Source: an uncultured Actinomycetes bacterium (lineage in GTDB: Bacteria > Actinomycetota > Thermoleophilia > Gaiellales > JALYLC01). Taken from it: a stretch of 64,000 nt of DNA. A program made the position numbers and the translations under genes. The stretch lies in NCBI GenBank assembly GCA_963743275.1, contig CAVUPB010000011.1, forward strand, positions 72,153-136,152. The letters run 5' to 3'. Each line of letters opens with the position of its first letter. Position 1 is the stretch's first letter. The notes under the pieces were generated by a model. That model was not told the origin of the DNA, made no database searches, and saw only the letters and a list, made by a program, of their open reading frames with translations. Below, one piece after another: positions 3,468-49,836 of this stretch.

Positions 3468-4042
3468 TGCGCCTGCCCGCCGTGACCCGCGGCGAGAAGC
3501 TCGGGCACCGCGTCACGTTCGCATTGATCCGCATCATGGAGCGGCGCCGCGCGCCCGACGTCGTGCGCACGCTGATGTTCCGGGGCGAGTTCTTCGGCTC
3601 GAAGATGATGTTCCACGAGGTGATGCGGGGCCCCTCGCCGTGGAGCGTCGGCGAGCGCGAGCTCTTCGCGGCCTTCGTGTCCAAGCAGAACGAGTGCGAG
3701 TACTGACTGCGCGCCCACGGCGCGGTCGCGTCGCGCGTGTACGGCAGCCAGGTGCTCGACGACCGCCTCGCGCAGCTCGACGACGCCGACATCTCTGCGG
3801 AGGCGCGCGCCATGCTCCCGCTGCTCGAGAAGTTCACGCTGGAGCACGATGCGCTCGGCGAGGGCGACTTCGCCGGCGTGCGGGCGCTCGGCGTGAGCGA
3901 CGAGGCGATCACCGACGCCTTCTACGTCGCCTACCTCTTCAACATCATCAACCGCATGGCCGACGCCCTGCGCTTCGAGGTCGGCTCGCAGGACGACTTC
4001 GACAAGTCGACGAAGTCGCTGCTCGGCCGCGGCTACCGCTAA
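3464..4042 (+). CDS. AhpD/carboxymuconolactone-decarboxylase-like protein interrupted by an in-frame TGA (3704-3706) at the second Cys position of its CxxC motif. It is either a candidate selenoprotein or a nonsense pseudogene.
   Basis: ORFs 3464..3706 and 3737..4042 are in the same frame. Read-through gives ...FVSKQNECEY[TGA]LRAHGAVASRVYGSQ..., i.e. the family motif N-x-C-x-Y-C-x-x-x-H. The combined length of about 192 aa is typical for the family. Confidence 0.6.
3716..3739 (+). other. Candidate SECIS-like stem-loop 10 nt after the in-frame TGA
   Basis: CACGGCGCG-GTCGCGT-CGCGCGTG: 8 bp with one bulge and a 7-nt loop starting GU. GC-rich hairpins are common by chance in this DNA. Confidence 0.2.
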
Positions 4043-17871: not shown

Positions 17872-17937
17872 ATCCCGTCAACCGCCAAGGCCGGACCCCG
17901 AGGGGAAGCCGCGGCAACGAAAGCCAGGAGCCCGGAA

Positions 17938-18798
17938 ATGATGCGAGGAATGTTCGCCGCGATCAGCGGCCTGCAGGTCCACCAGACGATGCTCGACGTC
18001 GTCGCCAACGACATCGCCAACACCAACACCGTCGGCTACAAGAGCGAGCAGACGACCTTCAAGGACGCGCTCTCGCAGACCACGCGCGGCGCCAGCGGCG
18101 GCACGACCACCCTCGGTGGCACGAACGCCATCCAGATCGGCCTCGGCGTCCAGCTCGGCTCGATCTCGAACCACATGGACCCCGGGGCGGTCCAGCAGAC
18201 CGGCGGCCCGCTCGACATGGCGATCCAGGGCGACGGGTTCTTCCGGGTCGGGGACGCCGCGGCGATCGCGGGCACCGGTGCCGTCTCGTACACGCGCGCC
18301 GGCAACTTCACCCTCGACGCCGGCGGCAGCCTCGTCACCCAGGACGGCGCGTTCGTGATCGGCTACCTGCCGACGACGCCCGCCACCCCGGCCGGCTACG
18401 CGAACCCGGCCAACCAGACCAAGCTCACCGTGCCGACGGGCGGCAAGTCGGTCTCGATCCAGTCCGACGGCACCGTGACCTACGTCGACTCGGCCGGCGT
18501 CCTGCAGACGCTCGGCACGATCAGCATGGCCAAGTTCCCGAACGCCGCGGGCGTCGAGCGGATCTCGGGGAACCTGTTCCAGGCCTCGAACAACTCCGGC
18601 GCGGCCGTGGCCGCGGTGCCGGGCGACGCGACCACGGGCATGGGCACGCTCGCGGTCGGCGCGGTCGAGATGTCGAACGTCGACCTCGCCCAGGAGTTCA
18701 CGCGCATGATCACGGCCCAGCGTGGCTACGAGGCCAACAGCCGCATCATCTCGACGGCCGACCAGATGCTCCAGAACCTGGTCAACATCGGTCGCTGA
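17938..18798 (+). CDS. flgE: Flagellar hook protein FlgE (short form, 286 aa)
   Basis: N-terminal MFAAISGLQVHQTMLDVVANDIANTNTVGYK and C-terminal LAQEFTRMITAQRGYEANSRIISTADQMLQNLVNI. Confidence 0.9.
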   Translation: MMRGMFAAISGLQVHQTMLDVVANDIANTNTVGYKSEQTTFKDALSQTTRGASGGTTTLGGTNAIQIGLGVQLGSISNHMDPGAVQQTGGPLDMAIQGDGFFRVGDAAAIAGTGAVSYTRAGNFTLDAGGSLVTQDGAFVIGYLPTTPATPAGYANPANQTKLTVPTGGKSVSIQSDGTVTYVDSAGVLQTLGTISMAKFPNAAGVERISGNLFQASNNSGAAVAAVPGDATTGMGTLAVGAVEMSNVDLAQEFTRMITAQRGYEANSRIISTADQMLQNLVNIGR

Positions 18799-18808
18799 TA
18801 GCCGATAA
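18782..18808 (+). promoter_or_regulatory. Sigma-28-type promoter overlapping the flgE stop
   Basis: TCAA-N15-GCCGATAA, with the -10 element starting 3 nt after the flgE TGA. Confidence 0.45.
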
Positions 18809-18810
18809 CC

Positions 18811-18844
18811 CGATGGCGGCGGGCGTTTCCGCCCGCCGCCATCG
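18811..18844 (+). terminator. Perfect 15-bp GC-rich stem-loop between flgE and flbD: an attenuator, an I-shaped terminator or an mRNA stabiliser
   Basis: CGATGGCGGCGGGCG-TTTC-CGCCCGCCGCCATCG. No U-tract follows. Confidence 0.5.
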
Positions 18845-18858
18845 AACCGGTCTTCACC

Positions 18859-19140
18859 ATGATCCCACTGCATCGACTCACCCACCCCACGCTTCCGCTG
18901 TACCTCAACCCGGACCTGATCCAGACGATCGAGGCGACGCCGGACACGGTCGTCGCCCTCACCAACTCGTCGCGGTTCGTCGTCAACGAGACGCCCGCCG
19001 AGGTGCTGACGATGATCCGCGACTGGCGCGCCGGCATCATCGCGAAGGCGCTCGAGGGTGACCTGAGCACCCCGCCGGCGGCACTCGCCCAGGTCGTGCA
19101 CCTGAGCCAGTGCGTCGACCCGTCGGCGCACGATTCCTGA
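18859..19140 (+). CDS. flbD: Flagellar protein FlbD
   Basis: MIPLHRLTHPTLPLYLNPDLIQTIEATPDTVVALTNSSRFVVNETPAEV is the typical FlbD sequence. Confidence 0.85.
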   Translation: MIPLHRLTHPTLPLYLNPDLIQTIEATPDTVVALTNSSRFVVNETPAEVLTMIRDWRAGIIAKALEGDLSTPPAALAQVVHLSQCVDPSAHDS

Positions 19141-19223
19141 AAAGTGATCTTTGAGCGCGACCGGTCGATAACCGGATGGTGGCCACGGACGGCCACTCGC
19201 AATCTCCAACGGACTGGAGCGAA

Positions 19224-20060
19224 GTGAAGGCGAATACCGCAATCGGAGTCATCGGCGCCATCGCGTGCCTGATGATCGCGGTGATCATGGAGGGCGGCCA
19301 GCCTGCGTCGCTCCTCAACATCCCTGCGCTGCTGATCGTGGTCGGCGGCACGGGCATGGCGACGTTCGCCTCCACGACCATGGAGGGGATCAAGAACATC
19401 CCGCGGCTCTACAAGAAGTCGTTCGGCGGCTCCGACGTCGATCCGGCCGCGGCGATCTCGCAGATGGTCGGGCTGGCCGAGAAGGCCCGTCGCGATGGCC
19501 TGCTCGCGCTCGAGGAGGAGCTCGCCGGGGTCGACGACGCATTCACCCGCACCGGCATCCAGCTCGTCGTCGACGGGACCGACTCCGATCTCGTCCGCGA
19601 CATCCTGCAGTCGGAGATCGACGGCATGAGCTCGCGGCACCGCGCCGGCGGCCATCTCTTCGCGACGGCGGGCGGGTTCGCGCCGACGCTCGGCATCCTC
19701 GGCACCGTGCTCAGCCTCGTCCACGTGCTCGAGAACCTCTCGAGCCCCGGCAAGCTCGGCCACGCGATCGCCGGCGCCTTCCTGGCCACGCTCTACGGCG
19801 TCGGCAGCGCGAACCTGATCTTCCTCCCGATCGCCAACAAGCTCAAGGAGCTGTCGGCGGTCGAGCTGCTCTACCGCGAGATGCTGCTCGAGGCGGTGCT
19901 CTCGATCCAGGCGGGCGACAACCCGCGCATGCTGCGCGAGAAGCTCGAGACGTTCATCGAGCCCGGCGCCCGCGGCGCCGAGCGCGAGGCCGCGCCTGCG
20001 CCGGTCGCGGTCGCCGCCGCCGAGGAGCCCGCGCCGGCCGAGCTGGCGGAGGCGGCATGA
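19224..20060 (+). CDS. motA: Flagellar motor stator protein MotA
   Basis: MotA/TolQ/ExbB channel sequence (GGFAPTLGILGTVLSLVHVL, AIAGAFLATLYGVGSANLIFLPIANKL). GTG 19224 has GGAG 5 nt upstream. The ORF track starts at 19176. Confidence 0.85.
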   Translation: MKANTAIGVIGAIACLMIAVIMEGGQPASLLNIPALLIVVGGTGMATFASTTMEGIKNIPRLYKKSFGGSDVDPAAAISQMVGLAEKARRDGLLALEEELAGVDDAFTRTGIQLVVDGTDSDLVRDILQSEIDGMSSRHRAGGHLFATAGGFAPTLGILGTVLSLVHVLENLSSPGKLGHAIAGAFLATLYGVGSANLIFLPIANKLKELSAVELLYREMLLEAVLSIQAGDNPRMLREKLETFIEPGARGAEREAAPAPVAVAAAEEPAPAELAEAA

Positions 20061-20872
20061 GCAGCGCTGCAGCCAACCGGCGGCGGCGCCGCCACGCGCC
20101 GGAGGAGCACGTCGACGAGCGCTGGCTCCTGACCTACAGCGACATGATCACGCTGCTGATGGCGCTGTTCCTCGTGCTGTGGGCGATCTCGTCGGTGAAC
20201 GTCTCGAAGTTCGCCGAGCTCAAGGTCTCGCTCCACCAGGCGTTCTCGGGCAAGGTGCTGGAGGGCAGCGGCAAGGTGCTCACCGGCGGGCAGGCGGCGA
20301 TGGCCCAGAACGGCTCCCCGGTCTCGCTGCCGATGCAGAACCCACCGCCGGCCTTCAAGATGATCTCGATCAGGGCCTCGCTGCAGGACGCCGCGCAACG
20401 GCAGGACGCCGAGAACCTGCGGCGCCTCCAGCGGCAGGTCGACGCGTACGCGCGCGCGCACGACATGTCCGCGCAGATCCGGACCTCGATCCAGGAGCGG
20501 GGCCTCGTCATCCACGTCCTCACCGACGCGGTGCTGTTCGACTCCGGGCAGGCGACGCTCAAGCAGCCGGCGCCTCTGCTCGGCGAGATCGCGCATCTGG
20601 TGACGCGTACGGGGATCGTCAACCCCATGCGCATCGAGGGCAATACCGACGACATCCCCGTCTCCCCGGGGAAGTTCCGCTCGAACTGGGAGCTGTCCTC
20701 CGCACGAGCCAATGCGGTGCTCGAGTTCATGCTGGCCCACGGCGTCGCCGCACGTCGCCTTTCGACGGTCGGCTACGGCGCTCAGCACCCGATCGCGTCG
20801 AACGCGACGGCGTCGGGCCGCAGCCGCAACCGGCGCGTCAGCCTCGTCCTCCTCCGCCGCACATTCCGCTGA
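20057..20872 (+). CDS. motB: Flagellar motor stator protein MotB (OmpA-like C-terminal domain)
   Basis: ATGA overlap with motA. ERWLLTYSDMITLLMALFLVLW plug/TM region and OmpA-like NWELSSARANAV...GRSRNRRVSLVLL. Confidence 0.85.
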   Translation: MSSAAANRRRRRHAPEEHVDERWLLTYSDMITLLMALFLVLWAISSVNVSKFAELKVSLHQAFSGKVLEGSGKVLTGGQAAMAQNGSPVSLPMQNPPPAFKMISIRASLQDAAQRQDAENLRRLQRQVDAYARAHDMSAQIRTSIQERGLVIHVLTDAVLFDSGQATLKQPAPLLGEIAHLVTRTGIVNPMRIEGNTDDIPVSPGKFRSNWELSSARANAVLEFMLAHGVAARRLSTVGYGAQHPIASNATASGRSRNRRVSLVLLRRTFR

Positions 20873-22931: not shown

Positions 22932-23210
22932 CTACGCGACGTGGAGATCGCCGCGCGCGAGGCCGTAGGCCCAGACCAGCGTCTCCGCGACCGCCTGGTA
23001 GAGCTCGGGCGGCACCTCGCCGCCGAGCTCGAGGGCGGCCAGCGCCTCGCTCAGGAGCGCGTCCTCGCGGATCGGCACGCCCGCCTCGCGCGCCGCCGCG
23101 ACGATCGCGTCGGCCACGAGTCCCTGCCCGGCCGCCACGACGATCGGGGCGGCGGCCCCGTTCGCCGTGTCGTAGCGGAGCGCTGCCGCCTTGTGCCTAC
23201 GCGTAGGCAT
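22932..23210 (-). CDS. Stand-alone FlhB C-terminal-domain-like protein (EscU/YscU/HrcU family, YlqH-like)
   Basis: 92 aa. ALRYDTANGAAAPIVVAAGQGLVADAIVAAAREAGVPIREDALLSEAL matches the FlhB cytoplasmic domain after the autocleavage site. Confidence 0.75.
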   Translation of the reverse strand: MPTRRHKAAALRYDTANGAAAPIVVAAGQGLVADAIVAAAREAGVPIREDALLSEALAALELGGEVPPELYQAVAETLVWAYGLARGDLHVA

Positions 23211-23916
23211 CGAAGGACTCGTCCACTCGCGGGCGGGCGGGACGCGCGTGCTGCGGGCGTCGCGCGGCGACGTCGACGTGCGCCGGGCCGGCGCACGCGC
23301 GCTCGAGCGCGCCCGCGAGCTCCGGCGCAGCCGCGGCGAACCGCGAGCGCGCCTCCGGCTCGACGACCACCTCGACCCTGATCGAGCCGTCGGCGAGCCT
23401 CAGATGCGCCTCGATCGGGCCGAGCGTCGCCGAATGGAGGACGAACGACGCCTCGCTGCCGGTCTCCCGGGAACGGCTGCCCTCCTCGCGTCCCTCGTCG
23501 CCGGCCACCGCCAGCGCCAGCGCGTCGCCGTTCGGGAGCGGCAGCGCGAGTCCCGGCTGCTGGAGCTCGTGCGCGACCTGGAGGAGCCTGCCGTCGCCGG
23601 CGAGCGCGAGCGCGCCCGCGGCCTGCGCCATGCGCCCGGCCGAGCCCGCCTCCGCGGCCGCTCCGGCCCCGTTCCTGATCTGCAGGAGCACCTCGTCGCC
23701 GTGGCTGCGGACGACCCGCACGGGCAGCCGCTGCCCGGGCGCGAGGCCGGCCGGCAGCTGCACCGAGAGCAGGATCCCCGCGAGCGAGATCACGCCGCGC
23801 CCGCCGTTCTGCGGCGCGGCGTCCACGCGCACCACGATGTCCGCACCCGGACGCAGCGCGAGCTCTTCGAGCAGCGCTCCGGCGGCGACCTGGCGGGCGA
23901 GGGTGGTGACTTCCAT
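23197..23916 (-). CDS. Second FliK-like protein (Flg_hook-type C-terminal domain)
   Basis: ASFVLHSATLGPIEAHLRLADGSIRVEVVVEPEARSRFAAAAPELAGALERA resembles the FliK C-terminal domain. It overlaps the downstream FlhB-CTD-like gene by 14 nt. The start is ATG 23916 or TTG 23952. Confidence 0.55.
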   Translation of the reverse strand: MEVTTLARQVAAGALLEELALRPGADIVVRVDAAPQNGGRGVISLAGILLSVQLPAGLAPGQRLPVRVVRSHGDEVLLQIRNGAGAAAEAGSAGRMAQAAGALALAGDGRLLQVAHELQQPGLALPLPNGDALALAVAGDEGREEGSRSRETGSEASFVLHSATLGPIEAHLRLADGSIRVEVVVEPEARSRFAAAAPELAGALERACAGPAHVDVAARRPQHARPARPRVDESFDAYA

Positions 23917-29475: not shown

Positions 29476-29521
29476 GCCCGCCTTCATTTTCAGCTCATCC
29501 TCGGAAAGGACTGACGGTCCC

Positions 29522-30337
29522 ATGGGACTTCGCATCGAGACCAACATCGAAGCGATGGATGCGCATCGCAACTTGCTCGCCACGTCGACGAAGATCTCTC
29601 AGTCGATGTCGCGGCTCAGCTCCGGCTACCGCATCAACAAGGCGGCGGACGACGCCGCCGGCCTCGCGATCAGCGAGAAGCTGCAGACGCAGGTCGGCGG
29701 CCTCAACCAGGCGCAGCGCAACGCGCAGGACGCCGTCTCGCTCGTGCAGACGGCAGAGGGCTCGATGAGCGAGGTGCAGTCGATGCTGCAGCGCGTTCGC
29801 GACCTCGCCGTGCAGTACAACAACGGCACGCTGTCGGCCTCCGACAAGGCCTCGATCACGAACGAGGTCACGCAGCTCTGCGACGAGATCGCACGCATCG
29901 CCTCGCAGACGAAGTTCAACGGCATCTCGCTGCTCACCGGCGCCGGCGTCATCAGCTTCCAGATCGGCGCCAACGACGGCGAGACGATCAGCGTGTCGAC
30001 GCGCGACATGTTCGGCGCGAGCTCGACGTATGACGTCAACTCCGCGCTGTTCACCTTCGGCGCGACGGTCACGCTGGCCTCGATCGACGCGGCGATCGAC
30101 AACATCTCGACCGCGCGCTCGACGTTCGGCGCGGTGCAGAACCGCCTCGAGCACACGCTCAACAACCTCGCGATCTACTCGGAGAACCTGAGCGCCTCCG
30201 TGAGCCAGATCAAGGACGTCGACATGGCGGCCGAGATGGTGAACTTCACGAAGCTGCAGATCCTGCAGTCGGCCGGCACCTCGATGCTGGCGCAGGCGAA
30301 CAGCGCTCCGCAGTCCGTGCTCAAGCTGCTCGGCTGA
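29522..30337 (+). CDS. fliC: Flagellin (271 aa), copy 1
   Basis: N-terminal LSSGYRINKAADDAAGLAISEKL and C-terminal FGAVQNRLEHT...DMAAEMVNFTKLQILQSAGTSMLAQANSAPQSVLKLL. It follows the fliW-csrA-flagellin order seen in Bacillus. Confidence 0.95.
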   Translation: MGLRIETNIEAMDAHRNLLATSTKISQSMSRLSSGYRINKAADDAAGLAISEKLQTQVGGLNQAQRNAQDAVSLVQTAEGSMSEVQSMLQRVRDLAVQYNNGTLSASDKASITNEVTQLCDEIARIASQTKFNGISLLTGAGVISFQIGANDGETISVSTRDMFGASSTYDVNSALFTFGATVTLASIDAAIDNISTARSTFGAVQNRLEHTLNNLAIYSENLSASVSQIKDVDMAAEMVNFTKLQILQSAGTSMLAQANSAPQSVLKLLG

Positions 30338-30378
30338 GGATTCGACCCCGGCGGAGCCCGGGGGATTCGCGATCGGAC

Positions 30379-31611: not shown

Positions 31612-32877
31612 TCAGCGAACCGCCATGCGGACGAGCTCCTCGGGCTCGGCCGGATGCAGGCCGGTGGTGGCGAGCGGGCTGTCGGTGACGAACGAGATCG
31701 GCAGGCCGTAGGCGAGCGAGAGCACGACCGGCATGCAGGTCTCCGCGCGGCGGTCCGCCCCGGTGACGAGGATCTGCGAAGGCTCGAGCGGCCCGGAGAG
31801 CTTGTCGAGCACTGCCCGGCCGGACTCGAAGTCGACGTCCGTGGGCATGACCACGTGGGTCTCGTCCGCGCGCAGCTTGCCCAGCAGGCGAGCCGATCGT
31901 GCGAACGAGCGCGCGTTGCGCGGGTCGAGCGGCGGGGTGTCGACGACGACGACCTCCGACTTGCGCAGACGCGCGCGCGAGATCGAGTCCGGGCGGCTCG
32001 CGACCTCGAACTCGATGCCGTCGTGGTCGGTGAGCCGGCCGAGCTCGAACGCGGTGCGGGCGGGCTCGAGGCTGACCGCCAGCACCCGCCGGCCCGCCGC
32101 TGCATACGTGTGGCAGAGCTTCGCGGCCGTGAGCGTCCGGCCCGACTCGGCCGTGCCGACGAGGGCGATGATGCGGCGCTTCTTCTCGCACCCGGCGGAT
32201 ACGCGGACGCGGCGCGTGAGCGCTCGCCGCGCCAGGACGCCGAACGGCTCGTCGGGAGCAAAGGGGAGCAACGTGCGCACGGCGTCATGGATGATGTCCT
32301 CGGCGAACTCGGCGCTGAAGCCGGCGGCGAGCAGATTGGCGCGCGCGGTCTCCGACTCGTCGGCGCTCGGGGTCAGCGGCCTCGGCCGCCGGGCGATCGC
32401 CGGCTTCTCGGCAGGGATGTCCGCCCGCACCTCGGCCGGGGCGCTCACGCGCAGCTCGGCCAGGGCATCCGTCCGCGCCTCGGCCGGCACGCTCGCCCGC
32501 GGCTCGGCCGGGGCGTCCGGGCGCAGCTCGGCCGGCACGTCCGGGCGAACCTCCGCCAGTGCATGCGACAGCTCGGACGCAAACGGCGACGTCTGGTCGA
32601 TCAGCGTCTGCAAGAGCGCGCTCTTCGGGTCGGTCCGCGGCTGGCCCGTGTCGTAGGCGTCGATCACGGCGCGCGGAGGCTGGGATTGCCGCACCGCCGC
32701 CGGGCGTGCCTCGACCTCGACGCACTTCTTGCCGAAGAAGCCCCCGACGCCGCCGACGACCCCCTCGCGCTGACGGACGATCACCGCATCAGGACCGAGC
32801 TCGCTGCGGATGCGCGGCAGCACCTCCTCGAGGGTGCCGCCCCGGTAGGTGGTGGTCGTATGTCGGGTGTTGCTCAT
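31612..32877 (-). CDS. flhF: Flagellar biosynthesis protein FlhF (SRP-type GTPase fold) with degenerate G motifs
   Basis: N-terminal [32 protein letters not shown] and an NG-like domain. G1 reads GTAESGRT and G3 reads DTPP. Six octapeptide repeats lie at about 32410-32553. Confidence 0.75.
32410..32553 (-). repeat. Six imperfect 24-nt (8-aa) tandem repeats inside flhF
   Basis: [48 protein letters not shown]. Confidence 0.8.
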
Positions 32878-32893: not shown

Positions 32894-34944
32894 TCATGCG
32901 GCCACCAATCCGGCGCTCTCGACTCTGATTCCAGCGACGATCTCGTTGTAGGAGACGACCGCAAGCTGCGGGAACGCCTGCTCGACGAGCTGGCGCAGGT
33001 GCCTCCGGACGCGGCTCGAGCAGACGACGACGGGTCGCCCGCCGGCGGCGGTCATGCGCTCGACGGAGTCGCCGAGCGAGGCGAGCAGCGCGTGCGCCCG
33101 CACCGGGTCGAGCGCGAGCACCTCGCCCTCGGGCGTGAGCGCGAGCGAGTCGGCGACCTCGTGCTCGAGGGCCGGGTCGAGCGAGATCGCCCGCAGCGTG
33201 TTCTCCGCGTCGAGGTAGCCCGAGGTGATCGTGCGCCCGAGCGCCTGGCGCGCCGCCTCGGCCAGCTGGGCCGGTTCGCGCGTGAGCATGGCGCGGTCGC
33301 CGATCGCCTCGAGGATGGTGCCGAGGTCGCGGATCGAGACGCCCTCGCGCAGCAGGTGCTGCAGCACGCGCTGCACCTCGCCGATCCCGAGCTTGTCGGG
33401 CACGACGTCGTCGACGGCGGCCGAGTTCTGCTCCTTGAGCCCGTCGAGCAGCTTCTTCGTCTCCTGGCGCGTCAGCAGCTCGTCGGCGTGGCGGCGGATC
33501 GTCTCGGTCAGGTGCGTGACGATGACCGACTCGCCGTCGACGACCGTGTAGCCGAGCGCCTCGGCCTCGGCGCGGCCGCTGTCGTCGATCCAGACGGCGG
33601 GCAGCCCGAAGGCCGGCTCGGTCGTCGGGATGCCGGCGAGGCCCGGAATCGCGTCGCCCGGGTTCATCGCCAGGCGATGGCCGGCGATCAGCCGGCTGCG
33701 CGCCACCTCGGCGCCGCGCACCTTGATCACGTACTCGTGGGAGTCGAGCGCCACCTCGTCGTGGATCCGCACGGGGGCGATCACGATCCCCAGCTCGCCT
33801 GCGATCTGGCGCCGGATGAGCCCGACGCGTGCCAGCAGTCCTCCGCCCGAGCGCTGGTCGACGAGCGGCACGAGCCCGAAGCCGATCGAGAGCTCGAGCG
33901 GGTCGACCGCGAGCGCGCCGAGCACCGGGTCGGTCGGGGGCGCCTCGAGCTCCAGGGCCGTCTGCGACGGGAGGGCCGCCTCGGCCTTCTTCTGCTGGGC
34001 GATGGTGCGGCCGATCAGCACGAGCGCTCCGCCGACGACGAAGAAGGGCAGCTTCGGCAGGCCCGGCACGAGCCCCATGGCGCAGATCACGCCGCCGCCG
34101 AGCATCGTCGCGCGCGGCTGGCTGAGCAGCTGCGCGGTGATCTCGCTGCCGAGATCCTTGTCGCTGCCCGAGCGCGTGACGATGATGCCGGTCGCGGTCG
34201 AGATCAGCAGCGCCGGGATCTGCGCCGCGAGGCCGTCGCCGATCGTCAGCAGGGCGAACGTGTGGAGCGCCTGCGAGATCGTCAGATGGTGCTGACAGCA
34301 TGCCGACGGCGATGCCGCCGATGAGGTTGATGACGACGATGATCACGCCGGCCACGGCGTCGCCCTTGACGAACTTGGACGCGCCGTCCATCGCGCCGTA
34401 GAAGTCGGCCTCCTTGCGGATCTCGAGCCGGCGCGCGCGGGCCTCGTCGTCGGTGATCTGCCCGGCGTTGAGGTCGGCGTCGATCGCCATCTGCTTGCCG
34501 GGCATCGCGTCGAGCGTGAAGCGCGCCGCCACCTCGGCGACGCGCCCCGCGCCGTTCGTGATCACGACGAACTGGATCACGATGAGGATGAGGAAGACCA
34601 CGAGGCCGACCACGAGGTTGCCGCCGACGACGAAGTTGCCGAATGCGTGGATGACGCCGCCCGCATCGCCGTGGAGCAGGATCAGGCGCGTGACGCTGAC
34701 GTTGATCGCGAGCCGCAGCAGGGTCGTGAAGAGCAGGAGCGACGGGAACGCGGCGAATTCGAGCGGCGCGCGGCACGTACATCGTCGTGATCACGATCAC
34801 GAGCGCGCCGGCGATGTTGAGGGTGATGATGAGGTCGATCAGCGCCGACGGAAGCGGCACGACCATCATCACGACGACGAGGACGACCGCGAATGCCGCG
34901 GCCAGGTCGCTCTGCTTCAGCAGGCGCTTCAGGAACGCGTCCAC
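32894..34944 (-). pseudogene. flhA: Flagellar export gate protein FlhA, split over three frames by two single-base insertions (near 34764-34776 and at about 34295)
   Basis: Segment A (34944 down to about 34774): MDAFLKRLL...[16 protein letters not shown]. Segment B: [61 protein letters not shown]...[13 protein letters not shown]. Segment C: [41 protein letters not shown]... to the stop at 32894. Together they give a colinear FlhA of about 682 aa. Confidence 0.85.
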
Positions 34945-35093: not shown

Positions 35094-36170
35094 TCATGCG
35101 GCCCGGGTGACGGCGCGCAGCCGCCCGGCCGCCCGCAGGACGAACGCGAGCACCTGCGCGACGGCGGTGAAGAGCTCCTCCGGGATCTGCGCGCCGAGCT
35201 CGACGTCCCGGTAGAGCGCGCGGGCGAGGGGCGCCTCGTGCACGATCGTCACGCCTGCCTCCTCGGCGGCCTTGCGGATCGCCAGCGCGACGTGATCCAC
35301 GCCCTTCGCGACGACCTCCGGCGCGGGCCGCGTGCCGTCGTAGCGGAGGGCGACGGCGTAGTGCGTCGGGTTGACGATGACGACGTCGGCGCTCGGGACG
35401 TCGGCGAGCATGCGCCTGCGGGCCATCTCGGACTGCCGCCGGCGCATCTGTCCCTTCATCTCGGGCGCGACGTCCGCCTCCTTGGCCTCGCGCCGCACCT
35501 CGTCCTTGGTCATCTTCAGCGTCTTCTCGTGCTTGCGCCTCTGCCACGCGTAGTCGGCCCCGGCCACGAGCACGAGCACGGCGGCGACGCGCAGCGCGAT
35601 CGAGAGGATGGTGTGCGCGAGCGCCGACGCGAGCTGGCCGGGCGGCATGCCCACGAGCGTGCCCATCGTCGGCAGCTGCGACCAGACGGCCGAGAACGCG
35701 ACGCCCGCGATGATCGCGGTCTTCACGAGGCTCTTCGCGAGCTCGAACGCCTGCGCCGGCCCGAACATCCGCTTGAACCCCTTGATCAGGCTGAGCTTCG
35801 CGAAGGACGGCTTGAGGGCGTGCCCGCTGAGACGGAAGCCCACCTGGGCGACGCTCGCCAGCACGCCTGCGACCGCTGCGGCGATCATCACGGGCGCCAC
35901 CATCCCGGCGAAGGAGCTCAGCGCCCAGCTCGTGATCTCCCCCCGGCCGGACGAGGTCGCGAAGCTCGGGTCGGCGGAACGGCTGAGGCCGCTGGACATG
36001 ATCGCCTCGGCGCGCCCGAGCATGCGCGGGCCCGTCAGCGCGAGCGCGCCGAAGGTCGCGAGCAGCACGACGACCGAGTTGACCTCCGCGGAGCGGGCGA
36101 CCTGGCCTTCCTTGCGCGCCTTCTCGCGGCGCTTGCCGGTCGGCTTCTCGGTCTTGCCGTGGTCGGCCAC
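35094..36170 (-). CDS. flhB: Flagellar export protein FlhB
   Basis: MADHGKTEKPTGKRREKARKEGQVARSAE..., NPTHYAVAL autocleavage motif and a C-terminal domain. Confidence 0.95.
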   Translation of the reverse strand: MADHGKTEKPTGKRREKARKEGQVARSAEVNSVVVLLATFGALALTGPRMLGRAEAIMSSGLSRSADPSFATSSGRGEITSWALSSFAGMVAPVMIAAAVAGVLASVAQVGFRLSGHALKPSFAKLSLIKGFKRMFGPAQAFELAKSLVKTAIIAGVAFSAVWSQLPTMGTLVGMPPGQLASALAHTILSIALRVAAVLVLVAGADYAWQRRKHEKTLKMTKDEVRREAKEADVAPEMKGQMRRRQSEMARRRMLADVPSADVVIVNPTHYAVALRYDGTRPAPEVVAKGVDHVALAIRKAAEEAGVTIVHEAPLARALYRDVELGAQIPEELFTAVAQVLAFVLRAAGRLRAVTRAA

Positions 36171-39820: not shown

Positions 39821-39884
39821 CCTGTCCCCTATATGTACCTGCTGTCTCTCTGTGTGGTGCGGGTGCTTCGTCGAACGGCGTCGC

Positions 39885-40700
39885 TTAGCCGAGCAGCTTG
39901 AGCACGGACTGCGGAGCGCTGTTCGCCTGCGCCAGCATCGAGGTGCCGGCCGACTGCAGGATCTGCAGCTTCGTGAAGTTCACCATCTCGGCCGCCATGT
40001 CGACGTCCTTGATCTGGCTCACGGAGGCGCTCAGGTTCTCCGAGTAGTTGGCCAGGTTGGCGAGCGTGTGCTCGAGGCGGTTCTGCACGGCGCCGAAGGT
40101 CGAGCGCGCGGTCGAGATGTTGTTGATCGCGGCGTCGATCGAGGCCAGCGTCACCGTGGCGCCGAACGAGAAGAGCGCCGAGTTGACGTCGTAGGTGGCG
40201 TTGGCGCCGAACAGGTCGCGCGCCGAGACGCTGATCGTCTCGCCGTCGTTGGCACCGATCTGGAAGCTGATCGCGCCGGCGCCGGTGAGCAGCGAGATGC
40301 CGTTGAACTTCGTCTGCGAGGAGATCCGTGCGATCTCGTTGCAGAGCTGCCCGACCTCGTTCGTGATCGCGGCCTTGTCGGACGTCGACAGCGTGCCGTT
40401 GTTGTACTGCACGGCGAGGTCGCGAACGCGCTGCAGCATCGACTGCACCTCGCTCATCGAGCCCTCTGCCGTCTGCACGAGCGAGACGGCGTCCTGCGCG
40501 TTGCGCTGCGCCTGGTTGAGGCCGCCGACCTGCGACGAGAGCTTCTCGCTGATCGCGAGACCGGCGGCGTCGTCCGCCGCCTTGTTGATGCGGTAGCCCG
40601 AGCTCAGCCGAGACATCGACTGAGAGATCTTGCCCGACGTGGCGAGCAAGTTGCGATGCGCATCCATCGCATTGATGTTGGTCTGGACGCTGAGGGACAT
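39885..40700 (-). CDS. fliC: Flagellin (271 aa), copy 2, inverted relative to copy 1
   Basis: MSLSVQTNINAMDAHRNLL... By manual alignment it differs from copy 1 at about 22 of 271 residues. The 3' ~160 nt are identical at the DNA level. SD AAGGAGGAA. Confidence 0.95.
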   Translation of the reverse strand: MSLSVQTNINAMDAHRNLLATSGKISQSMSRLSSGYRINKAADDAAGLAISEKLSSQVGGLNQAQRNAQDAVSLVQTAEGSMSEVQSMLQRVRDLAVQYNNGTLSTSDKAAITNEVGQLCNEIARISSQTKFNGISLLTGAGAISFQIGANDGETISVSARDLFGANATYDVNSALFSFGATVTLASIDAAINNISTARSTFGAVQNRLEHTLANLANYSENLSASVSQIKDVDMAAEMVNFTKLQILQSAGTSMLAQANSAPQSVLKLLG

Positions 40701-40765
40701 GCTCTTCCTCCTTGAAGGGCGGTGTTCCCGTTCGGCCCACTCCCTGTGGGCCGGCCCTGGCGCCT

Positions 40766-42547: not shown

Positions 42548-42573
42548 GAGAGCGCATTCGGAAATGCGCTCTC
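42548..42573 (+). terminator. Perfect 10-bp hairpin after the second response regulator
   Basis: GAGAGCGCAT-TCGGAA-ATGCGCTCTC. Its 3' end overlaps the next promoter's TCAA. Confidence 0.45.
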
Positions 42574-42598
42574 AAGACTGCGCCGAGACGGGCGACAA
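42572..42598 (+). promoter_or_regulatory. Sigma-28-like promoter spaced for a leaderless mRNA
   Basis: TCAA-N15-GGCGACAA, with 7 nt to GTG 42606. Confidence 0.4.
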
Positions 42599-42605
42599 CC
42601 TTCGC

Positions 42606-43793
42606 GTGTCGAGTCCCTTCCTCGCGCTCGCCTTCCTCGACGAGATCGCCGCCGCACCCGATCTGCTGGCCGAGTACGCGCAGCTCTTCGAAGGTCGCGG
42701 CGACGTGTCGCTCGTCGTGCTCGCGCCGGGCTTCGAGGGCGCCGATCTCGAGCGCGAGCTGCGCCCGCTCGCCGAGGCGATCGGTCTCGACCGCGACGGC
42801 AGCGCGGACGTGGTGGTCGTCACCCAGGCCGGAGCGGAGGACGAGCTCAGCGAGCGCGCGGGCGCCGTCTACACGCGCATCGCCAGGGGCGGGCGGCTCG
42901 ACGGACTGCCGCGGGCGAGCAGCGCCGGCGCGCTCGCCCGTCTCGTCGAGAGCGCTCGGGTGGACGCCGCCGGTGCGCAGGAGGGGAATCCGAGCTACCT
43001 CCTCGTCACCTACGACAGCTGCCGCCTCGACGTCCTGCAGGCGGCCCATACGCCGGTGCTCGACTCGTATGCCCGGATCGTCGCCGCGCAGACACCCGCG
43101 AACTTCACGTATGCGGCGCATCAGGCGTTCTTCGTCGGGATGCTCCCGAACGCGATCGAGCCGCTGCCGTACCACAACCGTTTCGTCAGCCAGTTGCTCG
43201 CGCTCGCAGCCGTCGGCGAGATCCAGGTCGTCGACAAGGCCTGTGCGCATCGCGTGAGCAGCGACGTCAACCTCGTCGCCGGCCTCTCCGCCGCCGGCTA
43301 TCAGACCGTCGGCGCCGGTGCGATGAACTGGTTCAAGCAGAAGGCGCTGACCCAGTGGTTCGAGAACTTCGCCTACACCGGCACCGACGCGCGCGCCCAG
43401 ATCGACTTCCTCCGGCGCGAGATCGACCCGCGCCGTCCGTTCTTCGGCTTCGTCAACTTCGGCGAGACCCATGACCCGTTCGACTTCGAGGGCAAGCCGG
43501 ACCGGTGCCCGATCGAGGTGCAGTCGCGTCTGATCGAGTGGCCGCCGGTGCAGAACGGCGTGCCGGTCGGCCGCGACTCCGAGGCCTGGGCGCACCAGCG
43601 GCGCTCCGCCGAGTTCCTCGACGCGCAGCTGCCGGCGCTGTTCGAAGGGCTCCCGGGCCACACGATCGTGATCCTCTGCGGCGACCATGGCGAGGCCTTC
43701 GGCGAGGACGGCTACTGGGGCCACGGCGTCAACCATCCCACCGTGCTGACCGTGCCGCTCGCGATCTTCCGGCTCGACCGCGCGCCGCTGTAG
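42606..43793 (+). CDS. Alkaline-phosphatase/sulfatase-superfamily enzyme with an N-terminal ~95-aa module shared with the 21770 methyltransferase
   Basis: N-terminal PFLALAFLDEIAAAPDLLAEYAQLFEGRGDVSLVVLAPG...GLDRDGSADVVVVT. Catalytic part YLLVTYDSCRLDVL...TPANFTYAAHQAFFVG...VILCGDHGEAFGEDGYWGHG (sulfatase-like metal and nucleophile motifs). Confidence 0.7.
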   Translation: MSSPFLALAFLDEIAAAPDLLAEYAQLFEGRGDVSLVVLAPGFEGADLERELRPLAEAIGLDRDGSADVVVVTQAGAEDELSERAGAVYTRIARGGRLDGLPRASSAGALARLVESARVDAAGAQEGNPSYLLVTYDSCRLDVLQAAHTPVLDSYARIVAAQTPANFTYAAHQAFFVGMLPNAIEPLPYHNRFVSQLLALAAVGEIQVVDKACAHRVSSDVNLVAGLSAAGYQTVGAGAMNWFKQKALTQWFENFAYTGTDARAQIDFLRREIDPRRPFFGFVNFGETHDPFDFEGKPDRCPIEVQSRLIEWPPVQNGVPVGRDSEAWAHQRRSAEFLDAQLPALFEGLPGHTIVILCGDHGEAFGEDGYWGHGVNHPTVLTVPLAIFRLDRAPL

Positions 43794-43923: not shown

Positions 43924-46900
43924 TTGACTGTGCCGATCGTCTCTGCCCCCTTCGCCGGCCTCGACGAGATCGCCGAGCCGTATGCGCTCCTGCTCGCGCC
44001 CGGCGCCGAGGTGAGCGCCGAGGCGATCGCGGAGCTGCGGGCGACGCTCGACGCGAATCCCGCCGCGGGCCTCGTCGGGGCCCGGCTCGCCGGGCCCGAC
44101 GGCCTGCTCCGGCAGGCCGGCGGCATCGTCGCGAGCGACGGCTCGATCTGGAGCTACGGCCACGGCCGGCAGGGCGACGACCCGCGCTACCTGCACGCGC
44201 GGGAGGTCGACTGGGTCTCGACGGACTGCGCGCTCGTGCGCGTCGCCGCGCTGCGCGCCGCCGGGGGCTTCGATCCCGCGCTCGCCGGCGAGGAGCGCGA
44301 CGCCGATCTCGCGTTCGCCCTGCGCCGGGCCGGCTATGCGGTCGTCTACCAGCCGTTCGCCGAGGCGGTCGTCCACGACCAGGCCGCCGAGACCGCCGAC
44401 GCCGCGGCCACCTGCGAGCTCAGCGTCATCATGCCGACCCACGATCGGGCGGAGCTGCTGCGCGACGCGCTCGAGAGCCTCGTGGGCCAGAGCGTCGCGC
44501 GCGACCGCTTCGAGGTCGTCGTCGTCGACGACGGCTCGACCGACGGCACCGAGCAGGTCTGCGCCGAGCTCTCCGAGCGGCTCGACCTCCGCTACGTCCG
44601 GATCGCGAGCTCGGGCATCGCCGCGGCCAAGAATGCCGGCATTCGCGCGGCGCGCGGCGCCATCCTGCTGTTCCTGGACGACGACGACGTGGCCGATCCG
44701 GGCCTGCTCGCGGAGCACCTCCGCGTGCACGCCGAGCGGCCCGAGGAGCACGTCGCGGTGCTCGGCTACACGACGTGGGGCGACTGGCTCGACGTGACGC
44801 CGCTCATGCACTTCGTGACCGACGTCGGCCACTACCTGTTCGCCTACAGCGACCTCGAAGACGGCCAGTCGCTGGACCACACCTACTTCTGGGGCGGCCG
44901 GAGCTCGTGCAAGCGCTCGTTCCTCCTGCGGCGCGGGCTCTTCAACCCGGCCTTCACGTTCGGCTCGGAGGACATCGAGCTCGGCTACCGGCTCTCCCGC
45001 TACGGACTCGAGGTCGTCTACGCCGCCGGCGCGATCAGCCGGATGAACCGGTCCGTCACGCTCGACGAGTTCTGCCGGCGCGTCGAGCGCCAGGGCCGTT
45101 CGCAGCTCGTCTTCTCGCGCCTGCACGCCGACCCCGGCGTCCAGACGTGGTGCGGCGTGGAGGCCGCCGCGGAGCGCTGGGCTGCGGTCGCGGCGGATCT
45201 CGACGCCCGTCTCGCTCGCGCCCGCGAGATCGAGGGTGCGCGCAGCGAGGAGTTCCACGCGCTGCTGTGGGGCATCTTCGACGCGCTGAAGCTGAAGGGG
45301 ATCGCCGAGGCTGCGAGCGAGGACGAGCAGGTCGCGCGGCCCGCGGCGCTGCGCCACGAGGCGCCGGGTGCCGCGCTGCGCGCCAAGTGGGCCGAGGAGC
45401 TGCGCGCGCAGACGGCGCCCGAGCACGAGCTGATGCGGGCGGCCGCCAACCGCGCGCCCGGCAGCCGGATCTTCGTCGCCGATCTGCTGCTCCCCGCCTA
45501 CACGCGCGCCTCCGGTGCGCGACGGATGTTCGAGTTGCTGCGCCTGCTCGCCGCCGCGGGTCACGCCGTCACGTTCGTCGCCGCCGACCCCTCCGACGGG
45601 CCGCGCTTCGTCGACGAGCTGCGCCGGCTGGGGATCGAGACCTACGCCGGCGACCCCGAGCGGGCGCTGCTGCTCGGGCGCTCCGTCGAGGCGCCGCACC
45701 TCGATCTCGGCGAGCTCCTGGCCGGGAGCGACTTCGATCTCGCGCTGCTCAGCCTGTGGTACGTGGCCGAGCGCTACCTCGAGCCCGTGCGGCGCTACGC
45801 GCCACGGGCGCGGATCGTGGTCGACACGGTCGACGTGCACTACGTCCGCGAGCAGCGCCATGCCGAGCTCGTGGGCGACCCGCTGCTCGCGCGCGGGGCA
45901 GCCGAGACGCGCCTGCGCGAGCTCGGCGTCTACGCGCAGGCCGACGCGCTCGTCGCCGTCACCGACAACGATGCCGACGGGATCCGCGCCGCGCTTCCCG
46001 AGGCCGAGATCCACATCGTCGGGAACATCCACGACGTCGCCGAGGCGTCGCCCGGGCCGGCGGGGCGCCAGGGCCTGCTCTTCGTCGGCAACTTCCTGCA
46101 TCGCCCGAACCCCGACGCGGTGATCTGGCTGCAGCGCGAGGTCATGCCGCTCGTCTGGGACGAGGAGCCGGATGCGACGCTGACGATCGCCGGGTTCCGG
46201 CCGACGGCCGAGGTACGGGAGCTCGCCGGCCCGCGCGTCGACGTCGTCGGCCACGTGCCCGACATGCAGCCGCTGCTCGACGCGCACCGCATCTCGGTCG
46301 CACCGCTGCGCTTCGGCGCAGGGATCAAGGGCAAGGTGTGCGAGGCGCTCGCGGCGGGACTCCCCGTGGTCACCACCGGCGTCGGGAGCGAGGGGATGGG
46401 CCTCGCCGAGGGCCACGACGTGCTGCTCGAGGCCGACGACGCGGAGGCGTTCGCCGCCGCCATCCTGCGGCTGCTCCGCGACGACGCGCTGTGGGCGCGG
46501 CTTGCCGCCGGCGGCCGTGCCTATGTCGAGCAGCAGCTCAGCTCGCAGGCGGCCGCGAAGCGGCTCGAGCGGCTGGTCGAGAGCGAGCGGGCCCGCAAGG
46601 CCGACGCGGAGCTGACATCGATCGTCGTGCTCGCGCTCGACAACGCCGAGCTGACCGGCGAGTGCCTCGACTCGATCGCCGCGCACACCGCCGAGCCCTA
46701 CGAGATCGTGCTCGTCGACAACGGCTCGGGCCCGGAGGCCGCGGATCTCTTCGCGCGCTGGGCGCGCGAGCGCGACGACCTGCGCGTGGTGCGCAACGCG
46801 GTCAACCTCGGCTTCGCCGGCGGCAACAACCAGGGACTCGCCCTCGCCCGCGGTGGCGCCGTCGTGCTGCTCAACAACGACACCGTCGTCACCGACGGCT

Positions 46901-49836
46901 GGCTCGGGCGCATGCGCGCGGTGCTCGAGCGCGAGGCCGGCGTCGGAATCGTCGGCCCGGTCACGAATCGGATCTCGGGCCCGCAACAGGTCGACGACGC
47001 CGTCTACGAGACCCCGCAGGAGCTTCACGCGTACGCGGCGGAGCGAGCGCTCGCACATGCCGGCCAGACCGCCGAGACGCTGCGCGTCGTCGGGTTCTGC
47101 ATGCTGATCAGGCGCGAGGTCGTCGATTGCATCGGCGGGCTCGACGAGCGCTTCGGCGCCGGCAACTTCGAGGACGACGACTTCTCCCTGCGCGCCGCGG
47201 CCCTGGGGTTCGGGGCCCGGATCGCGCTCGACGCGTTCGTCCACCACGCCGGCAGCCAGACGTTCGCCGCGGCGGGCATCGACCACCACCAGGCGATGCT
47301 GCGCAACTGGACGCTCTTCAAGGAGAAGTGGTCGATCCCGGCGGCGACGTCGATCGCCGAGCCCTACGCCGTCTCGCGTGAGACGGTGCTGGCCCGCTCG
47401 TGCGTCGTGCCGCTGCCCGCGATCGGGCGCTTCCACCGGCCCGAGGGGAACCTCTGGCGCGAGGCCGACGACAGTCGCGTCCTCGCCGCGGCCGCCGATG
47501 CGATCGAGGTCGGCCGCGTCGAGGCGCTCGCCGATGCCTTCGCCGAGGCCGCGCGATGGCTCGACCCGCACCGCCGCTACCAGACCCGCCGCCGCCTCGC
47601 CGAGCTGGTGCTCGACGCGCCCAAGCGGGGCGAGAGCGACTGGATGACGCTGTTCGCCGCCGGCGCGGAGGAGCTGACCGCCGTGCTCGAGGAGGAGCCG
47701 CGCGAGCCGATCCTGCTGAACTATCTCGGCGTCCTCCTCTACGAGCTCGGTGACCTGCGCACCGCGGAGTCCCTGTTCCGGGCTGCGTTCCGGCTCGACC
47801 CGGCGCTCGGACAGGCCCGGGAGAACCTCGAGGCCGCACGGCGGCTGCGCCGCGCGCACACGCTCGGCGCCCCGCGCGGCGCGTTGGCCGCGCGGGTGCG
47901 GGCGCTCGCGCCGCGCGCGCGTCGCCTGGCGGCTGCGGCGAGGCCGGTGGAGGGGTTGACGGTGTCGCTGTGCATGATCGTGAAGGACGAGGAGGAGTTG
48001 TTGCCGGCCTGTCTGGAGGCGGCGCGGGGTGCGGTCGACGAGATCGTGGTGGTCGATACGGGTTCGTCGGATCGCACGGTGGAGATCGCGGAGTCGTTTG
48101 GTGCGAAGGTCGTGTCGTTTCCGTGGAACGGGTCGTTTGCGGATGCGCGGAATGTCTCGATCGAGCATGCGACGGGCGATTGGATCATGTATCTGGACGC
48201 CGACGAGCAGCTTGCTGCGGGCTCGGCCGCAGAGTTGCGCTCGCTGCTCGGCAAGACCTGGCGCGAGGCCTTCAATCTCGTCGAGACGAACTTCACCGGC
48301 GGCGAGGGATCGGGGGAGTCGGTCGCCCACCTCGCGCTGCGCGTCTGGCGCAACCGGCCGGAGTACCGCTTCGCGGGCCGCATCCACGAGCAGAAGACGC
48401 AGTCGATGCCGAACTACCTGCCCGAGCGGTTCGAGACCACGACCGTGCAGATCTCCCACTACGGCTACCTCAAGAGCCGGATCTCGGCGAAGGAGAAGTC
48501 GCAGCGCAACATCGAGCTGCTCGAGGCGCAGGTCGAGGAGCGGGGGCTGAACGCCTTCTCCGCGCTCAACCTCGGCACCGAGTGGATGCTCGTCGGCGAG
48601 CAGGCGAAGGCGCGGGAGTACCTGGAGCAGTCGTGGACGATGCTGCGACGGCAGCCGGCGTGGCAGCGCCAGCCATGGGCCCCGATGCTGCTCTCGCGGC
48701 TCGCGACCGTCCGCCGCGAGCTCGGCGACCTCGCGGGCGTGCGCGCCCTCGTCGCCGAGGGCCTCGCGATCTATCCGGATCACACCGACCTCGTCTTCAA
48801 GCTCGCGCTCTGCGCCGTCGACGAGCGCGACTGGGCGGGCGCCGAGGTGCATGCCCGCCGCTGCCTCGCGCTCGGAGATGCGCCCGCCGCCTATTCGGGC
48901 AACGTCGGCGGCGGAACGTACCTCGCAATGGCGCTGCTCGGCCAGCTGAGCGAGGTCCAGGGGCGCCTCGACGAGGCCGAGGCGCACTACCGCCAGGCGC
49001 TCGCGGCGCATCCCTCGTTCGTCGCGCCCGCGCTGCCGCTCGCGACGCTCATGTTCCGCCGCGGCGCGGCGCCGGCCGAGGTCGAGGCGGCGCTGCCGGC
49101 CGGCCGGACGAGCGCGCTCCTGCTCGCGGCGAGCGCCTGCTTCGAGGCCGGCCATGCCCCCGAGGCGGCGGCGTGGTTCGCCCGCGTGCTCGACGAGCAG
49201 CCCGAAAACGGCGCCGCGCGCGTCGGGCTCGTCGAGTCCCTGCTCGCCGAGCGCCGCTACGACGAGGCGGTCGCCGAGGCGCGCCTGCGGGGCGACGGCT
49301 CGGCCGTCGCCACGAAGCTCGCCGCCGCCGAGCTCTTCATCCACGGGCTGCGGGCCGACGCGGCAGCGCTCGGAGCCGCACTCGAGACGTTCGACGGGAC
49401 CGTGCCCGAGGCCGCGCTCTTCGGCGCCTGGCACGGCCTGCTCGCCGGCGCTCCCGTACCCGATGTGCTGCCGGCAGAGCTGTTCGGCACGGTCGTCACG
49501 ATGCTCGAGGCGCTCCTGCGCGTCTCGGAGTTCCAGGCCTTCGAGACCCTGCACGGGCTGTTCACGCGCATCGACGTCGCTCCCGCGCTGCGCTCCGACG
49601 TCCTCGCGACGGTCTACTTCCGGCGCGGCTATCTGGATTCGGCGGCGGACGAATGGATCGCCTCGGTCGAGGCGGAGCCGAGCGCCGGCGCGCTGCTCGG
49701 CCTCGCGCACGTCGCGCTCGCCAAGGACCTGCCCGACGACGCCGCCGTGCTGCTGGACGAGGCGCTGGAGCTCGAGCCCGGCAACACGGACGCCTCGGCC
49801 CTGCGCGACGCGCTCGCCGACAAGGTGGCGGCGTGA
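43924..49836 (+). CDS. Giant multidomain glycosyltransferase (about 1970-2000 aa): GT-A fragment, GT2, GT4/GT1, GT2, helical linker, GT2 and a TPR-like tail
   Basis: LSVIMPTHDR...VVVDDGSTDGT...LFLDDDD (GT2). FVGNF...GIKGKVCEALAAGLPVVTT (GT4). SIVVLALDN...VLVDNGS...LLNNDTVV...GNFEDDD (GT2). SLCMIVKDEEELLP...VVVDTGSSD...MYLDADE (GT2). The start is uncertain: the ORF track gives 43828 inside the repeat, with TTG 43924 or GTG 43930 preferred. Confidence 0.8.
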   Translation: MTVPIVSAPFAGLDEIAEPYALLLAPGAEVSAEAIAELRATLDANPAAGLVGARLAGPDGLLRQAGGIVASDGSIWSYGHGRQGDDPRYLHAREVDWVSTDCALVRVAALRAAGGFDPALAGEERDADLAFALRRAGYAVVYQPFAEAVVHDQAAETADAAATCELSVIMPTHDRAELLRDALESLVGQSVARDRFEVVVVDDGSTDGTEQVCAELSERLDLRYVRIASSGIAAAKNAGIRAARGAILLFLDDDDVADPGLLAEHLRVHAERPEEHVAVLGYTTWGDWLDVTPLMHFVTDVGHYLFAYSDLEDGQSLDHTYFWGGRSSCKRSFLLRRGLFNPAFTFGSEDIELGYRLSRYGLEVVYAAGAISRMNRSVTLDEFCRRVERQGRSQLVFSRLHADPGVQTWCGVEAAAERWAAVAADLDARLARAREIEGARSEEFHALLWGIFDALKLKGIAEAASEDEQVARPAALRHEAPGAALRAKWAEELRAQTAPEHELMRAAANRAPGSRIFVADLLLPAYTRASGARRMFELLRLLAAAGHAVTFVAADPSDGPRFVDELRRLGIETYAGDPERALLLGRSVEAPHLDLGELLAGSDFDLALLSLWYVAERYLEPVRRYAPRARIVVDTVDVHYVREQRHAELVGDPLLARGAAETRLRELGVYAQADALVAVTDNDADGIRAALPEAEIHIVGNIHDVAEASPGPAGRQGLLFVGNFLHRPNPDAVIWLQREVMPLVWDEEPDATLTIAGFRPTAEVRELAGPRVDVVGHVPDMQPLLDAHRISVAPLRFGAGIKGKVCEALAAGLPVVTTGVGSEGMGLAEGHDVLLEADDAEAFAAAILRLLRDDALWARLAAGGRAYVEQQLSSQAAAKRLERLVESERARKADAELTSIVVLALDNAELTGECLDSIAAHTAEPYEIVLVDNGSGPEAADLFARWARERDDLRVVRNAVNLGFAGGNNQGLALARGGAVVLLNNDTVVTDGWLGRMRAVLEREAGVGIVGPVTNRISGPQQVDDAVYETPQELHAYAAERALAHAGQTAETLRVVGFCMLIRREVVDCIGGLDERFGAGNFEDDDFSLRAAALGFGARIALDAFVHHAGSQTFAAAGIDHHQAMLRNWTLFKEKWSIPAATSIAEPYAVSRETVLARSCVVPLPAIGRFHRPEGNLWREADDSRVLAAAADAIEVGRVEALADAFAEAARWLDPHRRYQTRRRLAELVLDAPKRGESDWMTLFAAGAEELTAVLEEEPREPILLNYLGVLLYELGDLRTAESLFRAAFRLDPALGQARENLEAARRLRRAHTLGAPRGALAARVRALAPRARRLAAAARPVEGLTVSLCMIVKDEEELLPACLEAARGAVDEIVVVDTGSSDRTVEIAESFGAKVVSFPWNGSFADARNVSIEHATGDWIMYLDADEQLAAGSAAELRSLLGKTWREAFNLVETNFTGGEGSGESVAHLALRVWRNRPEYRFAGRIHEQKTQSMPNYLPERFETTTVQISHYGYLKSRISAKEKSQRNIELLEAQVEERGLNAFSALNLGTEWMLVGEQAKAREYLEQSWTMLRRQPAWQRQPWAPMLLSRLATVRRELGDLAGVRALVAEGLAIYPDHTDLVFKLALCAVDERDWAGAEVHARRCLALGDAPAAYSGNVGGGTYLAMALLGQLSEVQGRLDEAEAHYRQALAAHPSFVAPALPLATLMFRRGAAPAEVEAALPAGRTSALLLAASACFEAGHAPEAAAWFARVLDEQPENGAARVGLVESLLAERRYDEAVAEARLRGDGSAVATKLAAAELFIHGLRADAAALGAALETFDGTVPEAALFGAWHGLLAGAPVPDVLPAELFGTVVTMLEALLRVSEFQAFETLHGLFTRIDVAPALRSDVLATVYFRRGYLDSAADEWIASVEAEPSAGALLGLAHVALAKDLPDDAAVLLDEALELEPGNTDASALRDALADKVAA
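47920..48273 (+). repeat. 354-bp block 100% identical to 51219-51572 (copy 1)
   Basis: Out-of-frame ORFs 47970.. and 51269.. (and 48029.. and 51328..) start with identical peptides at a constant offset of 3299 nt. The 5' boundary is sharp. Confidence 0.9.

Follow-up and report, generated by a model that had tools for sequence, protein, structure and literature searches.

Flagellar gene neighbourhood

The DNA analysed here, a single stretch of 64 kb that we refer to as the window, has a GC content of 71.7% and holds no N. Pfam annotation places a nearly complete flagellar regulon in it, arranged as follows:

14.6-31 kb: fliJ, an SLT-domain gene, fliK, flgD, flgE, flbD, motAB, fliL, fliN, flgF/G and flgN, continuing with flgK, flgL, fliW, csrA and a flagellin
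31.6-38.5 kb, minus strand: flhF, flhA, flhB and fliRQPO
31612-32877, minus strand: flhF, intact and directly downstream of flhA, with an SRP54 GTPase domain and a single-frame match to the FlhF of a relative
35094-36170, minus strand: flhB, intact and directly upstream of flhA, matching positions 2-335 of 335 of the Bac_export_2 profile
After the fliRQPO block: fliA, a second flagellin and two LuxR-type response regulators
43.9-53.2 kb: two giant glycosyltransferase/TPR proteins
53.5-63.8 kb: fliD, fliS, fliT, flgB, flgC, fliE, fliF, fliG, fliH, fliI, fliM and fliN/Y

The order fliO-fliP-fliQ-fliR-flhB-flhA-flhF is the same in two relatives (L082 and L084). A first-pass annotation of this DNA had described all flagellar genes other than flhA as intact, and the present data bear this out: about 45 genes covering 30 kb show full-length Pfam matches. 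Also, when the proteins of 21 neighbouring genes from relative L084 were aligned to the window with tblastn, each of the 21 matched in a single frame over its full length. FlhA alone needs three frames.

Several other features of the region deserve mention. The two flagellin genes (29521-30338, plus strand, and 39884-40701, minus strand) are arranged as an inverted repeat of 818 nt with 93% identity, and its arms lie 9,545 nt apart. A CHAP-domain gene, flhF, flhA, flhB, fliRQPO and fliA lie between the arms, and recombination between these could invert the intervening segment. The short-read contig of relative L084 stops just past fliA, where the second flagellin copy would lie. Further along the plus strand, 43930-49836 and 49833-53156 encode multi-domain proteins of 1968 and 1107 aa with GT2, GT4 and TPR domains. 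A sulfatase-like gene (42564-43793) is found directly upstream of this pair, which itself stands just upstream of fliD-fliS-fliT. Located within the flagellar regulon, the giant glycosyltransferase/TPR genes and the sulfatase-like gene probably make up a flagellin glycosylation island.

Two smaller loci were also observed. On the minus strand, 22932-23210 encodes a stand-alone protein of 92 aa that resembles the C-terminal domain of FlhB, beside a second FliK-like gene (23197-23916, minus strand); both are conserved in relative L084. At 3123-4042 (plus strand) three small back-to-back ORFs of 114, 80 and 101 aa show good coding signal without a Pfam match, and they adjoin two MpsC-domain genes.

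Reading frames of flhA

The locus of flhA (34944-32894, minus strand), the gene for a subunit of the flagellar type III export gate, consists of three abutting minus-strand coding segments, as seen from six-frame translation and a codon-position GC frame plot. Segments were called from this plot with a maximal-segment caller built on it. The segments and the two sites between them are:

34944-34765, minus strand: segment 1, 60 codons (MDAF...TTMYVPRA), GTG start at 34944, codon 60 being GCC at 34767-34765; matches positions 1-45 of 657 of the Pfam FHIPEP profile (E 3e-7)
34764-34761, minus strand: frameshift site 1, GCTC against a single Val codon (GTC or GTG) in relatives; +1; no repeat
34760-34296, minus strand: segment 2, 155 codons (EFAAFPSLL...GGIAVGML); matches FHIPEP positions 35-196 of 657 (E 1.5e-94)
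34295-34292, minus strand: frameshift site 2, TCAG against a single codon (ACG or ATG) in relatives; +1; no repeat
34291-32894, minus strand: segment 3, 465 codons and a TGA stop (HHLTISQ...LVAA); matches FHIPEP positions 197-655 of 657 (E 1.6e-141)

A colinear FlhA of 682 aa can thus be read only with two frame changes, each caused by one extra base, which agrees with the earlier claim that an FlhA of about this size requires two such changes. The placement of the three pieces on consecutive parts of the FHIPEP profile is far beyond chance. Codon bias tracks exactly these three frames, and the codon-position GC bias is fully kept in all segments. A single uninterrupted ORF would be expected for a member of the FHIPEP family, whereas flhA in the window requires three frames; no FlhA can be translated from the exact sequence as deposited. 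Both breaks fall within the membrane domain (residues 61 and 217). The earliest in-frame start codon of segment 2 is GTG 34613, about 50 codons in, and the earliest in-frame ATG of segment 3 is found at 34105, about 63 codons in. From this ATG the gene caller of the deposited assembly predicted a fragment of 403 aa (P0124).

Alignment with MAFFT to the flhA of four intact relatives shows exactly two single-column insertions in the window, as had been claimed. One extra column is present per site, so that both shifts are indeed +1. The only further gap in this five-sequence alignment is an in-frame 3-nt deletion in one relative. At site 1 the extra base is C 34763 (column 181), where the window reads GCCG[C]TCGAA against GCCG-TCGAG in relatives, whose protein has PRAVEF or PRAVDF. 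The first-pass annotation had put this site at 34764-34776, of which only the lower edge stands given the true site at 34764-34761, and its protein junction MYV/PLEF should read ...MYVPRA/(V/L)EFAAFP. For site 2 it had named an extra T at about 34295, with which the alignment agrees: the simplest reading takes T 34295, ahead of CAG (Gln), as the extra base, the alternative being another of 34295-34292 (column 651). Here the window has CTG TCAG CAC against CTG ACG CAC or ATG ATG CAC in relatives.

Comparison of the repaired gene with relatives

Removal of one base per site yields an FlhA of 682 aa. It aligns colinearly with homologues that are 681-683 aa long, and neither site shows a gap. Its nearest matches, FlhA sequences of uncultured Gaiellales, fall in this length range and are up to 92% identical to it. 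Matches to the family models cover nearly the full length: positions 1-655 of 657 for PF00771 (FHIPEP; 866 bits) and 2-678 of 678 for TIGR01398 (836 bits, against a cut-off of 772). The repaired protein therefore resembles the FlhA family in being full-length and above the equivalog cut-off, in keeping the family-conserved residues and in the usual fliOPQR-flhB-flhA-flhF order of its gene. It differs in that the deposited frame is interrupted twice. The DNA of all four relatives, to which a comparison had been suggested earlier, is uninterrupted, at 89.5-91.6% nucleotide identity to the window, and 117 FlhA homologues show one frame at both sites at the protein level.

We looked for traces of decay in the repaired gene. 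Its dN/dS against the four relatives is 0.167-0.172, compared to 0.13-0.17 among the relatives themselves. No terminal branch is shorter than that of the window sequence, which shows 11 synonymous and 6 non-synonymous codon changes of its own, the latter conservative. The resulting unique N/S of 0.55 exceeds that of the relatives (0.22-0.31), but this difference is not significant (Fisher P = 0.23). Measured against 117 full-length homologues, the repaired protein deviates at none of the 286 columns with at least 97% conservation (others average 2.3 deviations) and at 2 of the 371 columns with at least 90% conservation (others average 7.6). Relaxed purifying selection in flhA was thus not found by dN/dS, conserved columns or terminal-branch N/S. 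This means that the lesions, if real, must be extremely recent.

Phase variation, recoding and a split gene

The first-pass annotation had left three readings open: an indel from sequencing or assembly, motility lost very recently, or phase variation. The last of these is not supported. A reversible on/off switch by slipped-strand phase variation, or programmed +1 ribosomal frameshifting, would allow full-length FlhA to be made at times; all that speaks for this is the +1 sense of both shifts, together with downstream frames that are perfectly coding. Neither site has a homopolymer or simple repeat. Tandem Repeats Finder reports no array overlapping either one, and the nearest runs of at least four identical bases lie 209 nt from site 1 and 222 nt from site 2. 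By inspection, the contexts GCC GCU CGA and CUG UCA GCA are neither slippery nor provided with a stop codon. At both sites the P-site codon is unable to re-pair in the +1 frame, and no in-frame stop is present. The frame is uninterrupted in the four close relatives and in the 117 homologues, so a shift is not conserved. We know of no precedent for two independent recoding events in one gene. Both phase variation and programmed frameshifting are unsupported, because the sites are without repeat or homopolymer and the relatives are without shifts, and we regard them as very improbable.

Even less probable is an evolved split flhA, in which the three pieces would be translated separately and assemble into the gate. 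Each piece does have an intact coding signal, and nothing further speaks for such an arrangement. Against it, segments 2 and 3 have no start codon for approximately their first 50 and 63 codons, the breaks are situated inside the membrane domain, and the gene of the relatives is unsplit. We take all three of these readings (phase variation, programmed frameshifting, split gene) to be practically excluded.

Frameshifts across the window

The first-pass annotation had also pointed to the same type of error in a GH-A gene at 7.56 kb, and this lesion is confirmed:

6652-8758, plus strand: GH5 (clan GH-A) mannanase-like gene with one extra C at 7561 (CTG CTG [C] GAC); +1; no homopolymer

A continuous alignment, covering residues 26-338, matches the repaired GH5 protein to the endo-beta-mannanase of PDB 7bob and spans the junction. 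As a side observation, the last 50 or so codons of this gene (8600-8758) lack coding signal, and its true stop may also be displaced.

Only three of the approximately 68 coding segments in the window end far from an in-frame stop, being two flhA segments and the GH5 segment that ends at 7560. The 64-kb window thus holds three lesions, each a +1 insertion of one base outside any homopolymer or repeat. Two are located in flhA, 468 nt apart. Under uniform random errors the probability of this is 0.083 for two lesions in the same gene and 0.043 for the spacing.

Control contigs were used to place these numbers in context. The short-read controls, about 115 kb of contigs from related taxa with high GC, yield no frameshift candidates, against three in the window; if three events were placed at random over both, the chance that all would fall in the window is 0.045. 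The same detector does find candidates in Flye-style long-read MAG contigs. In the MFD long-read MAG contig L002 an AMP-binding enzyme gene (17889-20531) has its middle part of approximately 700 nt in another frame, with a +1 shift near 18700 and the original frame regained near 19360. This is a second example of paired frameshifts within one gene, in a Flye-style MAG.

More extreme cases came from a short-query protein search, which returned dozens of FlhA fragments on long ENA contigs. The two long ENA contigs that were examined, L085 (ERZ25039557:contig_19219) and L086 (ERZ25039520:contig_148352), belong to ENA+NCBI assemblies with names of the contig_N form and derive from related bacteria. 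In both contigs fliP, fliR, flhB and flhA are shredded; the frame may, for example, change 8 times over the 2 kb that flhA occupies. In L085, +1 shifts account for 6 of 8 frame changes, and in L086 for every one. Most of the changes stem from single-base insertions in non-homopolymer GC-rich DNA, for instance GCG to GGCG or GACG. The window shows this very mode of error. Shredded contigs of this kind are probably the origin of many 100-270 aa FlhA 'proteins' in the protein collection. The record of the 403-aa fragment P0124 likewise derives from a contig (174,744 bp) labelled NCBI+ENA, like the contigs L085 and L086.

In MAGs assembled from nanopore reads alone, indels that persist in the sequence are known to produce false pseudogenes (PMC8103633). 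The window resembles such long-read (nanopore/Flye) assemblies in that single-base indels split otherwise conserved genes, that an unrelated gene is likewise hit and that the insertions are of the +1 non-homopolymer mode. It differs from the noisy Flye-style contigs in lesion density, which is far lower (3 per 64 kb against 8 per 2 kb).

Other ideas on the cause of the extra bases were considered. Site 1 adjoins one of only two GAATTC motifs in the window and the repaired site 2 reads CTGCAG, which raised the option of a methylation-motif cause. This was ruled out: GAATTC merely encodes a conserved Glu-Phe, and a further 36 CTGCAG sites show no disturbance. A chimeric or mosaic join was rejected as well, since the nearest of the four relatives, as followed by sliding-window identity, stays the same across each site. 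It might be conjectured that the extra bases represent both alleles of a synonymous third-position SNP placed in tandem (GCC/GCG, CTG/CTT and CTG/CTC). This idea fits all three sites but is too permissive to serve as evidence.

Consensus error or recent null allele

We consider the extra bases in flhA and in the GH5 gene to be assembly or consensus indels, with a probability of roughly two in three. This reading is favoured because the one-base repairs are clean, flhA shows no decay and the regulon is intact, and also because an unrelated GH5 gene has a like lesion and the control contigs show a matching pattern. The extra bases would then be single inserted bases that were left as errors in the consensus when a metagenome was assembled from long reads (Flye-style). 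We infer that they would stem from base-calling, consensus or polishing and not from the cell. In that case FlhA (682 aa) would be intact in the uncultured Gaiellales organism, and its flagellar export gate would work.

The main competitor is a very recent null allele created by two genuine insertions in flhA. The cells would then have no export gate and be non-flagellate despite an intact regulon. Several observations are in line with this. The lesions stand in the deposited consensus, and two hits in one gene have the classic look of a pseudogene (the P value of 0.083 given above for random errors). The unique N/S on the window branch is nominally above that of the relatives. Real genomes can carry pseudogenes at such a rate (about two broken genes out of 65). 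Silent flagellar gene sets may exist in the order of Gaiella occulta, because this species, the only cultured relative known to us, is reportedly non-motile according to its description and yet holds motility genes. Its genome carries 36 COG cell-motility genes (PMC6741124).

Searches for an intact flhA of the same lineage also count against an assembly error. An exact look-up of the six possible 682-aa variants of the repaired FlhA among approximately 15 billion proteins found none of them. Pattern scans of JGI metagenome contigs, built to match the lineage whether or not a site carried its extra base, gave 0 hits. A short-query protein search across site 2 returned no fragment of the same lineage, its best match being 74% identical, and the best match in a scan of genome contigs was likewise 74%. 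Thus the exact look-up, the pattern scans and the short-query search all failed to yield an intact same-lineage gene. A look-up with FlhB and FliQ did lead to a 2.3-kb Logan contig from ERR12037368, which ends 44 nt short of flhA. This run contains the neighbouring fliQ-fliR-flhB in an exact copy and is thereby a candidate for the source of the window. Literature searches on Gaiellales flagella and on the run accession found nothing specific.

On the other side, a real null allele has to be reconciled with the lack of relaxed constraint (dN/dS of 0.17, none of the 286 conserved columns changed, and an N/S difference with P = 0.23). After a first hit in flhA the whole regulon would be neutral, and a second frameshift would fall again in flhA in only some 5-7% of cases (2.0 kb out of 30-41 kb). 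No other flagellar gene is damaged, whereas the unrelated GH5 gene has the same +1 type of insertion. Natural small indels favour runs and deletions; all three lesions, in contrast, are insertions outside runs. Compared with known recent loss-of-motility pseudogenes, the likeness is that one essential flagellar gene is frameshifted while its neighbours are intact. The differences are that flhA shows no relaxed selection, that the regulon has no second lesion elsewhere and that the flhA insertions are located outside mutational hot spots.

Weighing both sides, we regard the null allele as possible but less likely. In biological terms it would mean that a soil Gaiellales population very recently lost its export gate by two real insertions, so that motility loss is caught at its first step. 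The remainder of the regulon would still be pristine, comprising approximately 30 kb of flagellar genes and approximately 10 kb of adjacent glycosyltransferase and sulfatase-like genes. Of the three readings left open earlier, the indel is therefore the favoured one and a very recent null allele is possible. The caution of the first-pass annotation, that claims of an active flagellar system hinge on resolving the flhA lesions, stands.

Implications

Summarizing, the split of flhA is most likely not a real biological feature but the result of consensus errors. Its scientific interest is low unless the lesions prove real in the reads, in which case they would represent an ordinary but very young loss-of-function allele. 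The main value of the finding lies in quality control: motility loss should not be deduced from this contig, and the fragment P0124 should not be treated as a real protein. If the frameshifts are taken at face value, the genome will be scored as lacking FlhA and predicted to be non-motile, and flhA will enter protein databases as fragments, as has already happened with the 403-aa P0124. If they are artefacts, the window holds a complete flagellar regulon together with a large putative flagellin-glycosylation island, and the organism should be predicted to be motile.
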